Part shown: positions 60,354 through 63,817 of the stretch, one piece after another | Position numbering within the stretch: position 1 is the first letter of the stretch | Layout of the letters: each line of letters begins with the position of its first letter | NCBI RefSeq assembly: GCF_030384885.1 | Contig: NZ_CP128613.1 | From: Escherichia coli | Lineage (GTDB): Bacteria; Pseudomonadota; Gammaproteobacteria; Enterobacterales; Enterobacteriaceae | DNA: 64,000 nucleotides | Reading direction: 5' to 3' (one strand) | Notes under the pieces: generated by a model | What the model saw: the letters and a program-made list of their open reading frames with translations, nothing else | What the model was told of the DNA's origin: nothing | Databases searched by the model: none | Program-made: the position numbers and the translations under genes

Positions 60354-63300
60354 ATGATTCCACAGATTTCCCAGGCACCCGGCGTCGTTCAATTGGTGCT
60401 TAATTTTTTGCAAGAGCTGGAGCAACAGGGTTTTACTGGCGATACGGCGACAAGTTATGCCGATCGTCTGACAATGTCGACCGACAACAGTATTTACCAA
60501 CTTCTCCCCGATGCAGTGGTATTTCCGCGTTCGACCGCAGATGTGGCGCTGATCGCTCGTCTTGCCGCGCAGGAACGCTATTCATCGCTGATCTTTACCC
60601 CCCGCGGCGGCGGCACCGGCACTAACGGTCAGGCGCTCAACCAGGGGATTATTGTTGATATGTCCCGCCATATGAACCGCATCATCGAAATTAACCCTGA
60701 AGAGGGCTGGGTGCGCGTTGAGGCCGGGGTGATAAAAGATCAACTCAATCAGTACCTGAAACCGTTCGGCTACTTTTTTGCGCCGGAGCTTTCGACCAGC
60801 AACCGGGCAACGCTCGGCGGGATGATCAATACCGATGCATCCGGTCAGGGATCGCTGGTCTATGGCAAAACGTCAGATCACGTACTTGGCGTACGCGCGG
60901 TGTTGTTGGGGGGCGATATTCTCGATACGCAACCCTTACCCGTCGAACTGGCAGAAACGCTGGGTAAAACCAATACCGCAATCGGGCGAATTTATAACAC
61001 GGTTTATCAACGTTGCCGTCAGCAACGCCAGTTAATCATCAACAACTTCCCCAAACTTAACCGCTTTCTTACCGGTTACGATCTGCGTCATGTCTTTAAC
61101 GATGAGATGACCGAGTTCGACCTGACGCGCATTCTGACGGGTTCAGAAGGGACGCTGGCCTTCATTACCGAAGCGCGGCTGGATATTACGCCCTTGCCTA
61201 AAGTGCGCCGTCTGGTGAACGTCAAATATGACTCTTTTGACTCCGCGCTGCGTAACGCGCCGTTTATGGTTGAGGCGAGGGCGCTTTCGGTAGAGACGGT
61301 GGACTCAAAAGTGCTGAATCTGGCGCGGGAAGATATTGTCTGGCATTCCGTCAGCGAGTTGATTACCGATGTGCCTGACAAAGAAATGCTCGGGCTGAAC
61401 ATTGTGGAATTTGCTGGTGATGATGAGACGCTGATTGATGAGCGGGTAAATGCACTCTGTGCGCGGTTGGATGAACTGATTGCCAGCCAACAGGCAGGTG
61501 TGATTGGCTGGCAGGTGTGCCGCGAACTGGCGGGTGTTGAACGTATCTATGCGATGCGCAAAAAAGCCGTTGGTCTGCTTGGCAATGCCAAAGGTGCCGC
61601 TAAGCCAATTCCGTTTGCTGAGGATACCTGCGTACCGCCGGAACATCTGGCCGATTATATTGCTGAATTTCGCGCGCTGCTCGACAGCCACGGCTTAAGC
61701 TACGGTATGTTCGGTCACGTCGATGCAGGTGTCTTGCACGTCCGTCCGGCGCTGGATATGTGCGATCCACAACAAGAGATTTTGATGAAGCAAATCTCTG
61801 ATGATGTAGTGGCGTTGACTGCGAAATACGGTGGTTTGTTGTGGGGCGAACACGGTAAAGGTTTTCGTGCCGAATACAGCCCGGCGTTTTTCGGTGAGGT
61901 ACTTTACGGCGAATTACGTAAAGTCAAAGCGGCATTTGATCCACAAAACCGGCTCAACCCAGGGAAAATTTGCCCACCGGAAGGTATCGACGCGCCTATG
62001 ATGAAAGTGGACGCGGTGAAGCGTGGCACATATGATCGACAGATCCCCATCGCGGTACGCCAGCAGTGGCGCGGGGCAATGGAGTGTAATGGCAACGGTT
62101 TATGCTTCAACTTTGATGCCCGCAGTCCGATGTGCCCGTCGATGAAGATCACCCAGAACCGGATTCATTCACCGAAAGGACGCGCAACGCTGGTGCGTGA
62201 GTGGCTGCGTTTGTTGGCAGATCGCGGCGTTGACCCACTCAAACTGGAACAAGAACTGCCTGAATCCGGCGTCAGTTTGCGGACGTTAATTGCCCGCACG
62301 CGCAATAGCTGGCATGCGAATAAAGGCGAATATGACTTCTCACACGAAGTCAAAGAGGCGATGTCGGGCTGTCTGGCCTGTAAAGCTTGTTCGACCCAGT
62401 GCCCCATCAAAATTGATGTGCCGGAGTTTCGCTCTCGTTTCCTGCAGCTCTATCACACACGTTATTTACGCCCATTACGTGACCATTTGGTGGCAACGGT
62501 TGAGAGCTACGCGCCGCTGATGGCACGCGCGCCGAAAACCTTTAACTTCTTCATTAACCAGCCGCTGGTGCGCAAACTCTCGGAAAAACATATTGGCATG
62601 GTTGATTTGCCGCTGCTGTCGGTCCCCTCGCTGCAACAACAAATGGTGGGGCATCGCTCGGCAAACATGACGCTGGAACAGCTTGAAGCTCTCAATGCAG
62701 AGCAGAAAGCGCGCACGGTGTTGGTGGTGCAGGACCCCTTTACCAGCTATTACGATGCGCAAGTGGTGGCGGATTTTGTCCGTCTGGTCGAAAAATTAGG
62801 TTTCCAGCCCGTGTTACTGCCATTTTCGCCGAATGGCAAAGCCCAGCATATCAAAGGCTTTCTTAATCGTTTTGCGAAGACGGCGAAAAAAACGGCGGAT
62901 TTTCTCAACCGAATGGCGAAATTGGGAATGCCAATGGTGGGCGTCGATCCAGCGCTGGTACTTTGTTATCGCGATGAATATAAACTGGCTCTGGGCGAGG
63001 AGCGTGGCGAGTTTAAGGTCTTACTGGCGAATGAATGGTTGGCAAGCATACTTGAGTCACAGCCAGTGGCTACAGTCAGCGGTGAATCATGGTATTTCTT
63101 TGGTCACTGTACCGAGGTTACCGCTTTGCCGGGCGCGCCAGCACAATGGGCTGCGATATTTGCCCGTTTTGGCGCGAAACTGGAAAATGTCAGCGTGGGT
63201 TGCTGCGGCATGGCAGGGACTTACGGACATGAAGCGAAAAACCATAAAAATTCGCTCGGGATCTATGAGTTATCCTGGCATCAGGTGATGCAGCGACTGC

Positions 63301-63410
63301 CGCGTAACCGCTGTCTGGCGACCGGATATTCCTGCCGTAGTCAGGTCAAACGGGTTGAAGGCACGGGGGTACGCCATCCTGTGCAGGCTTTACTGGAGAT
63401 TATTAAATGA
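60354..63410 (+). CDS. ydiJ: FAD-linked oxidoreductase with Fe-S and CCG domains, YdiJ (putative 2-hydroxyacid dehydrogenase)
   Basis: 1018-aa ORF; N-terminal FAD-binding domain (IFTPRGGGTGTNGQ), ferredoxin-type Cys cluster (CLACKACSTQCPIKIDVP) and C-terminal Cys-rich segment (CCGMAGTYGHE). Confidence 0.9.
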   Translation: MIPQISQAPGVVQLVLNFLQELEQQGFTGDTATSYADRLTMSTDNSIYQLLPDAVVFPRSTADVALIARLAAQERYSSLIFTPRGGGTGTNGQALNQGIIVDMSRHMNRIIEINPEEGWVRVEAGVIKDQLNQYLKPFGYFFAPELSTSNRATLGGMINTDASGQGSLVYGKTSDHVLGVRAVLLGGDILDTQPLPVELAETLGKTNTAIGRIYNTVYQRCRQQRQLIINNFPKLNRFLTGYDLRHVFNDEMTEFDLTRILTGSEGTLAFITEARLDITPLPKVRRLVNVKYDSFDSALRNAPFMVEARALSVETVDSKVLNLAREDIVWHSVSELITDVPDKEMLGLNIVEFAGDDETLIDERVNALCARLDELIASQQAGVIGWQVCRELAGVERIYAMRKKAVGLLGNAKGAAKPIPFAEDTCVPPEHLADYIAEFRALLDSHGLSYGMFGHVDAGVLHVRPALDMCDPQQEILMKQISDDVVALTAKYGGLLWGEHGKGFRAEYSPAFFGEVLYGELRKVKAAFDPQNRLNPGKICPPEGIDAPMMKVDAVKRGTYDRQIPIAVRQQWRGAMECNGNGLCFNFDARSPMCPSMKITQNRIHSPKGRATLVREWLRLLADRGVDPLKLEQELPESGVSLRTLIARTRNSWHANKGEYDFSHEVKEAMSGCLACKACSTQCPIKIDVPEFRSRFLQLYHTRYLRPLRDHLVATVESYAPLMARAPKTFNFFINQPLVRKLSEKHIGMVDLPLLSVPSLQQQMVGHRSANMTLEQLEALNAEQKARTVLVVQDPFTSYYDAQVVADFVRLVEKLGFQPVLLPFSPNGKAQHIKGFLNRFAKTAKKTADFLNRMAKLGMPMVGVDPALVLCYRDEYKLALGEERGEFKVLLANEWLASILESQPVATVSGESWYFFGHCTEVTALPGAPAQWAAIFARFGAKLENVSVGCCGMAGTYGHEAKNHKNSLGIYELSWHQVMQRLPRNRCLATGYSCRSQVKRVEGTGVRHPVQALLEIIK

Positions 63411-63817
63411 TATGGAAACGAAAAATCACCCTGGAAGCACTGAATGCCATGGGTGAAGGAAACATGGTGGGGTTACTGGATATTCGCTTTGAACATATTG
63501 GTGATGACACCCTTGAAGCGACAATGCCAGTAGACTCGCGGACAAAGCAGCCTTTCGGGTTGCTGCATGGAGGCGCGTCTGTGGTGCTAGCCGAAAGTAT
63601 CGGTTCCGTTGCCGGTTATTTATGTACCGAAGGTGAGCAAAAGGTGGTTGGTCTGGAAATCAATGCTAACCACGTCCGCTCGGCACGAGAAGGGCGGGTG
63701 CGCGGCGTATGCAAACCGTTGCATCTCGGTTCGCGTCACCAGGTCTGGCAGATTGAAATCTTCGATGAGAAAGGGCGTTTGTGCTGTTCGTCACGATTAA
63801 CGACCGCCATTTTGTGA
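63407..63817 (+). CDS. menI: 1,4-dihydroxy-2-naphthoyl-CoA hydrolase (hotdog thioesterase)
   Basis: 136-aa ORF MIWKRKITLEALNAMGEGNMVGLLDIRFEHIGDDTLEATMPVD; 4-bp overlap with the ydiJ stop. Confidence 0.88.
   Translation: MIWKRKITLEALNAMGEGNMVGLLDIRFEHIGDDTLEATMPVDSRTKQPFGLLHGGASVVLAESIGSVAGYLCTEGEQKVVGLEINANHVRSAREGRVRGVCKPLHLGSRHQVWQIEIFDEKGRLCCSSRLTTAIL

Follow-up and report, generated by a model that had tools for sequence, protein, structure and literature searches.

YdiJ of Escherichia coli has been described as a D-2-hydroxyglutarate (D-2-HG) dehydrogenase (D2HGDH) with strict specificity and a Km of 83 µM; D-lactate and ten other acids tested gave no YdiJ activity, and a ydiJ knockout accumulates D-2-HG (PMC9504171). 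A second study confirmed the D2HGDH role with domain deletions and an epistasis test on serA, and also suggested direct use of quinone by YdiJ (PMC12297413); the published YdiJ assays used PES/DCIP as acceptors. SerA, the product of serA, is a known metabolic partner of D2HGDH, and its side product D-2-HG is cleared by YdiJ. The YdiJ protein of Pantoea ananatis is likewise an active D2HGDH, both in vitro and in vivo (PMC9504171). The D2HGDHs of Pseudomonas stutzeri and human catalyse the same reaction with the same VAO/GlcD flavin fold and the same partnership with SerA; unlike YdiJ, they are single-domain proteins of about half its size, have no Fe-S module and deliver electrons to ETF (PMC12297413). 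Even in the flavin half YdiJ is only 23–25% identical to single-domain D2HGDHs (PMC9504171). As for the gene order, a survey of RpoD promoters gives ydiJI as one operon, has no promoter entry between ydiJ and ydiI (menI), and assigns to ydiH a constitutive RpoD promoter of its own (PMC3946193).

Both enzymes, the substrate of YdiJ and the ydiJI operon have been described before, and the pairing is ordinary in kind. In a literature search we found no published comment on the reason for ydiJ–menI coupling. We read ydiJI, with a probability of roughly 0.7, as a two-gene operon that is co-expressed and translationally coupled and that encodes two enzymes with separate housekeeping jobs. What is added here is how old the pairing is, a ribosome-binding site that codon choice maintains, and the disappearance of menI from this locus in Pantoea; beyond correct annotation the finding matters little.

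The window, i.e. the whole stretch of 64,000 nucleotides of E. coli DNA that was analysed, carries the two genes with the features collected in Table 1. RefSeq annotates the same two genes for the identical strain. The names ydiJ and menI proposed in the earlier note agree with curated family models as well as with RefSeq, and ORFs of such length with such family scores cannot have arisen by chance. YdiJ scores 1725.4 bits against the NCBIfam equivalog NF049975 (cut-off 1350), with residues 1–1016 of 1018 covered. The protein is ∼98% identical to the common E. coli protein clusters; compared with YdiJ of E. coli K-12 and P. ananatis, it has the same 1018 aa and the same GlcD-like plus GlpC-like architecture, with no difference of substance. 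By virtue of the ∼98% identity, the D-2-HG specificity and the knockout phenotype of the K-12 and P. ananatis orthologues probably carry over to this protein. The earlier note treats the substrate of YdiJ as uncertain; this no longer holds, since D-2-HG was shown to be the substrate in 2022 and 2025 (PMC9504171, PMC12297413) and the curated model NF049975 is passed; most of the substrate assays that the note proposed for YdiJ are already in print, with D-lactate inactive.

Table 1. Positions of the ydiJ–menI genes and of the features discussed in the text, numbered from the first letter of the window
Feature	Position	Strand	Basis
Shine-Dalgarno-like AGGG before ydiJ start	60342..60345	+	inside AGGGTC, invariant in 13 aligned Enterobacteriaceae upstream regions
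ydiJ coding sequence	60354..63410	+	ORF, 1018 aa; RefSeq annotation concurs
FAD_binding_4 (residues 52-192)	60507..60929	+	Pfam PF01565, E 2e-38
FAD-oxidase_C cap/substrate domain (residues 281-539)	61194..61970	+	Pfam
Ferredoxin-like Fe-S region (residues 577-687)	62082..62414	+	Pfam Fer4_8, E 2e-6, 28.6 bits vs cut-off 27
GlpC/HdrBC-like electron-transfer module (residues 664-1016)	62343..63401	+	NCBIfam match and fold
CxxCxxCxxxCP motif CLACKACSTQCP (residues 673-684)	62370..62405	+	read directly from the sequence
Shine-Dalgarno GGAG for menI	63395..63398	+	ydiJ codons Leu1014-Glu1015 (CTG GAG), 8 nt before ATG
ATGA stop/start overlap, ydiJ/menI	63407..63410	+	ATT AAA TGA; ATG 63407-63409, TGA 63408-63410
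menI coding sequence	63407..63817	+	ORF, 136 aa; NCBIfam NF007631, Pfam 4HBT
ydiH sigma-70 promoter, TTGTCA-16-CATATT	63820..63847	+	consensus scan; identical site in PMC3946193

The domain layout expected from the earlier note (an FAD domain, a CxxCxxCxxxCP cluster and a Cys-rich C-terminus) was found in full, by Pfam matches and invariant cysteines. The AF2 model of YdiJ has pLDDT 92 and pTM 0.91. The N-terminal FAD-binding and cap domains are of the GlcD/VAO type, and Foldseek aligns the protein with human D2HGDH (6LPN) at a TM-score of 0.83. In the Fe-S region Cys578, 584, 594, 673, 676, 679 and 683 are invariant among 34 diverse homologues, and within the CLACKACSTQCP motif all four cysteines and the proline are invariant in the same set. 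YdiJ ends in a GlpC-like Fe-S domain, of a kind reported to be indispensable for YdiJ activity, and the conserved cysteines of this GlpC/HdrBC-like module are confined to its last part, where Cys919, Cys950, Cys951 and Cys994 are invariant. Residues 661–1018 gave no match to the Pfam CCG family (PF02754) even at E-values up to 10, and a PDB sequence search with the C-terminal half of YdiJ returned no relative; only the fold search returned one, and the fold is similar to that of solved CCG-domain proteins. The C-terminal region is termed GlpC/HdrB-like here from its NCBIfam match and fold, and is not filed as a member of Pfam CCG. Set against mycobacterial EtfD, archaeal HdrBC and E. coli GlpC, the protein is without a transmembrane or heme domain, carries only seven ferredoxin cysteines instead of eight, and keeps cysteines in just one of its two CCG-like halves.

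YdiJ would accordingly be pictured as a soluble flavin/Fe-S dehydrogenase that oxidises D-2-HG, the SerA by-product, back to 2-oxoglutarate, with electrons probably passing from FAD through the HdrBC/GlpC-like Fe-S module to an acceptor, for which published work suggests quinone. One could go further and suppose that at low oxygen YdiJ reduces demethylmenaquinone (DMK) or menaquinone (MK), co-expression with MenI then matching the supply of naphthoquinone, and that the two enzymes share a respiratory role. This idea, which we consider unlikely, draws on the GlpC-like C-terminal half of YdiJ, which can be superposed on EtfD's soluble Fe-S module, an electron wire to menaquinone, and on the direct quinone use suggested in PMC12297413. 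EtfD, however, reduces menaquinone via a heme-b membrane domain of the sort that YdiJ lacks, and our literature search found no paper joining D2HGDH and menaquinone.

MenI scores 312.2 bits against NCBIfam NF007631 (cut-off 226) vs 195.9 bits against NF007607, the model of its paralogue EntH, which is below the cut-off of 237. It matches Pfam 4HBT (PF03061, E 1e-18; hotdog fold) and is near-identical to the solved YdiI structures (4K49, 1SBK, 1VH5), from which no difference was found; the match to 4K49 is 299 bits over residues 1–136, and the paralogue EntH/YbdB matched lower in the PDB (177 bits). Gln48, His54, Glu63 and His89, which we take to be the YdiI active-site residues, are all present in the translation. 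MenI is thus a predicted hotdog thioesterase that would hydrolyse 1,4-dihydroxy-2-naphthoyl-CoA in menaquinone synthesis. Indirect support for the menaquinone role comes from Pantoea stewartii, which has no menI at its ydiJ locus and is reported to be without the men genes, with Q8 as sole quinone (PMC11226699). The remark in the earlier note that menI stands apart from other men genes is right, and YdiJ and MenI appear to have no pathway in common.

At the junction the predicted 4-bp overlap of the ydiJ stop with the menI start is indeed there, as ATGA. Junctions of this type are among the commonest in bacterial operons; therefore, the overlap in itself is not unusual. The ribosome-binding site of menI lies within codons of ydiJ. 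Among 19 Enterobacteriaceae Leu1014 is encoded by CTG in all 19 and Glu1015 by GAG in 18, with five different codons in use for the adjoining Leu1013. The Shine-Dalgarno-like motif was seen in 42 of the 44 loci with overlapping genes vs none of the seven loci in which the Leu-Glu residues are the same but the genes do not overlap. The codons forming GGAG are, then, fixed only where the genes overlap, a pattern pointing to selection among synonymous codons that keeps the site. Given the overlap and the embedded site, menI would be translated from the ydiJ mRNA, with ribosomes that end ydiJ, or that load there, beginning menI, and translation of menI probably depends on that of ydiJ. Folding of RNA 63350–63450 gave no significant structure at the menI start (z = 0.18); with no structure to occlude the start, independent initiation at menI is possible as well. 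As comparative results, these make a tidy example of translational coupling.

Downstream, the ydiH promoter marks the 3′ boundary of the ydiJ–menI unit. Within ydiJ a crude consensus scan found no excess of promoter-like or terminator-like sites, the counts being at chance level; there were three promoter-like sites vs a shuffled expectation of 3.5 ± 2.2. These counts bear on the proposal that menI is expressed mainly from its own promoter inside ydiJ, with the overlap an accident of a compact genome that has little effect on expression. One promoter-like site within ydiJ (62008–62036) and slightly reduced synonymous diversity over YdiJ residues 761–820 could be cited for it, as could the RNA fold at the menI start, which offers no significant structure tying initiation to upstream ribosomes. 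We find the proposal improbable: the number of sites is that expected from shuffled sequence, the RpoD survey names the unit ydiJI and has no promoter between its two genes (PMC3946193), and selection on the embedded site goes together with the overlap. An internal promoter would, in any case, not contradict coupling. The transcriptome papers that mention ydiJ yielded no information on menI co-expression.

The pairing of the two genes is seen well beyond this species. The earlier note had named beforehand, as a ground for giving up its reading, a pairing that is not conserved outside E. coli; the pair is conserved far outside it. A menI-like gene follows ydiJ on the same strand in 60 of 80 related loci, overlapping it by 4 bp or 1 bp in 44 of the 80 and separated from it by gaps of 4–51 nt in a further eight. 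The pair occurs in Enterobacterales, Pasteurellaceae, Aeromonas and Psychromonas. In the last three the pair stands among genes other than ydiK, ydiH and suf, yet it is kept, which suggests selection for the linkage itself. The arrangement would then go back at least to the last ancestor shared by Enterobacterales, Pasteurellaceae and Aeromonas. In those Pasteurellaceae loci that were examined, a gene of the MenI/EntH family lies 4–13 nt after the ydiJ homologue or overlaps it; HI1161 of Haemophilus influenzae (1SC0, 2B6E) is, like MenI, a hotdog thioesterase of this family. The Pasteurellaceae thioesterases score ∼150 bits with either model, MenI or EntH, below both cut-offs, and any substrate named for them would be presumptive. 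Aeromonas has another gene, a 162-aa ORF, between the two; neither this ORF nor the 134-aa gene that replaces menI in Pantoea has a Pfam match.

Conserved translational coupling might also serve stoichiometric assembly, if the YdiJ and MenI homotetramers associate, or if MenI has a second role in removing an acyl-CoA that inhibits YdiJ or is produced near it. YdiJ, a homotetramer, goes mostly into inclusion bodies when expressed alone (PMC9504171), and MenI-type thioesterase homologues are found in menaquinone-free organisms (e.g. PA1618), both of which speak for such a partnership. Still, purified YdiJ is active by itself with normal kinetics (PMC9504171), the YdiJ proteins of Pantoea and Vibrionaceae have no adjacent partner, and in Aeromonas a gene stands between the pair; we consider such an association very improbable indeed.

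The distribution of the pairing bears on a naphthoquinone role of YdiJ. Enterobacterales, Pasteurellaceae and Aeromonas, in which the pair persists, are MK or DMK producers. In our set of loci the aerobic Alteromonadales-type genera have ydiJ alone, as does P. putida, a distribution that speaks for such a role. ydiJ was found without adjacent menI in Pantoea stewartii, a second Pantoea species, Tatumella and Rosenbergiella. Menaquinone producers have probably retained the pairing, and bacteria that do not make menaquinone have probably given it up. Against the naphthoquinone role, the pairing is absent in nine of nine loci of Vibrionaceae, though Vibrio species make menaquinone. The men genes are reported absent from P. 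stewartii, P. ananatis and P. agglomerans, with Q8 as sole quinone (PMC11226699), and in P. ananatis, one of these three, YdiJ is nonetheless active and physiologically needed (PMC9504171). The functional link between YdiJ and menaquinone that the earlier note implied is not supported here, YdiJ being at work in Pantoea, which makes ubiquinone alone and no longer has menI at this locus.

A broader claim would be that the deep conservation of coupled ydiJ–menI reflects a real partnership, either a MenI-dependent supply of naphthoquinone to the HdrBC-like electron wire of YdiJ in low-oxygen serine synthesis or a YdiJ–MenI complex. If true, it would tie D-2-HG clearance to the menaquinone pool; we think it has little chance of being correct, and prefer the two-gene operon for separate housekeeping jobs. 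In favour of separate jobs, the gene of distant YdiJ homologues stands directly after serA, and in none of them is a thioesterase gene its neighbour; PP_4493, the homologue in P. putida, is reported to lie outside operons.

Within the species, the region is present in 5420 of 5426 complete E. coli genomes. The allele in the window is that of strain 2013C-4282, and the surrounding 4.1-kb region shows ∼2.5% DNA divergence from most E. coli.

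The ydiJ and menI genes (menI is also known as ydiI) lie on the (+) strand as two overlapping ORFs, as the earlier note had read from the sequence; the ORF coordinates and the junction ATT AAA TGA, in which the menI ATG occupies 63407-63409, leave four bases, ATGA, common to both genes. Among the junction types of bacterial operons, the 4-bp ATGA overlap ranks with the commonest. E. coli strain 2013C-4282 matches the region at 100% identity, and RefSeq gives its gene order there as ydiK (opposite strand), ydiJ, menI, ydiH and then sufABCDSE; of 5426 complete E. coli genomes, 5420 carry the region. 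In the part tested (59900-64000) identity to nearly all complete E. coli genomes besides 2013C-4282 is only ~97.5%, so the strain of the window is a member of a diverged lineage.

Both genes, their functions and the operon that they form were already on record. Shimada et al. 2014 (PMC3946193) reported a constitutive RpoD promoter of ydiH, TTGTCA-16-CATATT, and called the upstream operon ydiJI; the same site was recovered by our promoter scan. Within the ydiJ-menI unit the scan found promoter-like and terminator-like sites at no more than chance level.

Features of the ydiJ-menI region, of the YdiJ protein and of two distant ydiJ loci
Feature	Location	Strand	Remarks
RprA small RNA	58562-58669	-	Rfam RF00034, 118 bits vs gathering score 70
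ydiJ ORF	60354..63410	+	1018 aa
GGAG before menI	63395-63398	+	8 nt 5' of ATG; within ydiJ codons Leu1014-Glu1015
menI ORF	63407..63817	+	136 aa
ydiH sigma-70 promoter	63820-63847		just 3' of menI
ydiH	63918 onward		62 aa; Pfam YdiH, unknown function
FAD_binding_4 of YdiJ	residues 52-192		Pfam
FAD-oxidase_C of YdiJ	residues 281-539		Pfam
Fer4_8 of YdiJ	residues 577-687		Pfam
serA of locus L082	2515-3744		2-Hacid_dh + ACT domains; upstream of 49%-identity YdiJ homologue
serA of locus L083	2693-3940		2-Hacid_dh + ACT domains; upstream of 44%-identity YdiJ homologue

To assess conservation, a profile built from diverse YdiJ sequences was run against one genome per species, 80 loci (59-98% identity) were kept, and MenI homologues were located within them. 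The earlier note would have given up the pairing had it not been conserved outside E. coli; it held in 60 of the 80 loci, across several orders. At 44 loci menI overlaps ydiJ by 4 bp (ATGA or GTGA) or 1 bp (TGATG or TAATG), or by 38 nt in Edwardsiella; at eight it follows after a gap of 4-51 nt (Yersinia, Rouxiella, Budvicia, Pasteurellaceae, Psychromonas), and at another eight it is found further downstream (six Aeromonas, Rodentibacter, and Plesiomonas with a 240-nt gap). A menI-like gene is absent from 20 loci: all nine Vibrionaceae, Pantoea (2), Tatumella, Rosenbergiella, Pasteurella bettyae, Moritella, three Alteromonadales-type genera, Desulfuromusa and one metagenome bin with a remnant only. 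Enterobacterales are the only group in which ydiK and sufA flank the pair, and among the 80 loci ydiH is confined to Escherichia, Citrobacter and Enterobacter; the pair therefore outlasts its surroundings.

MenI of the window scores above the DHNA-CoA hydrolase equivalog (312 bits vs cut-off 226) and below the EntH model (196 bits vs cut-off 237), and the solved YdiI and MenI are essentially identical. Thioesterases from outside Enterobacteriaceae score 150-225 bits, under the curated MenI cut-off, and are putatively MenI by synteny and best match.

Several junctions have departed from the usual form. In Edwardsiella ictaluri (7022-7087 of its locus) the usual ydiJ stop is lost, so that ydiJ extends 38 nt into menI. 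Transposase-like ORFs on the opposite strand part ydiJ from menI by 1450 nt in Rodentibacter heidelbergensis (7100-8320), which looks like a recent insertion. In the six Aeromonas loci ydiJ and the menI-like gene are separated by an ORF of 162 aa that has no Pfam match and no known family; in Aeromonas media (7063-7551) the start of this ORF abuts the ydiJ stop.

The ydiJ-menI coupling is probably real, ancient and under selection, and ordinary in kind. Of the 44 loci with an overlap, 42 have a GGAG-type motif within the 18 nt at the 3' end of ydiJ. Seven loci encode the same Leu-Glu residues but have no overlapping menI; their Leu codon is CTT, CTA or TTA and their Glu codon GAG or GAA, and the motif is thereby destroyed. 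In the 19 Enterobacteriaceae compared, CTG encodes Leu1014 throughout and GAG encodes Glu1015 in 18, while five codons are in use for the adjacent Leu1013 and the gene-wide normalised codon entropy of ydiJ is 0.66. RNA structure around the menI start was not significant (z = 0.18), thus ribosomes may also load directly at this start. In Yersinia thracica (7040-7075 of its locus) a short stretch of the junction is duplicated, so that menI has a GGAG of its own in a spacer of 14 nt. Synonymous codon diversity in the same Enterobacteriaceae also dips to ~0.50, against the gene mean of 0.66, at YdiJ residues 761-820 (window 62634-62813); with 16-20 codons counted per window this could be chance, or it could be an embedded signal.

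The substrate of YdiJ, which the earlier note held uncertain, is established. Samsonov et al. 2022 (PMC9504171) showed that YdiJ of E. coli (Km 83 uM) and Pantoea ananatis oxidises D-2-hydroxyglutarate (D-2-HG) and is inactive on D-lactate, malate, tartrate, glycerate, L-2-HG, glutarate and pyruvate, and that D-2-HG builds up in both ydiJ knockouts; their assays used the artificial acceptor pair PES/DCIP. A 2025 Nature Communications study (PMC12297413) confirmed YdiJ as the sole D-2-HG dehydrogenase (D2HGDH) of E. coli, found both halves required, identified SerA as the D-2-HG source and suggested direct quinone use. Most of the YdiJ assays that the note proposed are thus already in published work. 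In P. putida the homologue PP_4493 has the same function and reportedly lies outside operons. YdiJ of the window scores 1725 bits against the NCBIfam equivalog 'D-2-hydroxyglutarate dehydrogenase YdiJ' (cut-off 1350).

In an alignment of 34 homologues with identity down to 37%, three groups of YdiJ cysteines are invariant: 578, 584 and 594; 673, 676, 679 and 683, which bear out the CxxCxxCxxxCP cluster noticed earlier; and 919, 950, 951 and 994. GlpC models match residues 664-1016 (E 2e-31). The Fe-S half (window 62082-63335) has just seven conserved Cys in its two-cluster ferredoxin-like part and keeps the others solely in the last CCG-like segment, so its cluster content may be unlike that of GlpC, HdrBC and EtfD. 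The likeness of this module to that of EtfD, an electron wire to menaquinone, would allow a facultative quinone connection of YdiJ, but EtfD reaches menaquinone via a heme domain that YdiJ lacks, and we consider such a connection unlikely.

The evidence points against an obligate link between YdiJ and MenI. In the Pantoea loci menI and ydiH are missing and suf comes directly after ydiJ, and a published report has P. stewartii, P. ananatis and P. agglomerans without men genes and making ubiquinone-8 only (PMC11226699). P. ananatis YdiJ is nevertheless active and required in vivo (PMC9504171). The loss of menI from this locus in such a genus lends indirect support to the menaquinone role of MenI and shows that YdiJ requires neither MenI nor menaquinone. 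None of six distant YdiJ homologues has a thioesterase neighbour: four have varied neighbours, and two (44-49% identity; L082 and L083) have serA immediately upstream on the same strand, which is independent genomic support for a SerA-D2HGDH partnership. The linkage of ydiJ to menI has all the same been kept across several orders.

Upstream of the pair, the ydiK-ydiJ intergenic region holds at 60120-60270 a dispersed repeat, presumably an ERIC/IRU element; its copy number is 16 in this strain, and the median across E. coli genomes is 11. A block at ~60085-60148 (AGAAAAAAATGTGnTACAAC...ACGCAAACGATT) is conserved in other genera; in Escherichia the repeat falls between this block and the ydiJ start, and thus may be within the ydiJ 5' leader. 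For about 1200 records the top match to the repeat has just 80-90% identity, which suggests that some strains lack the copy at this locus. The RprA gene of the window is annotated in the matching genome too.
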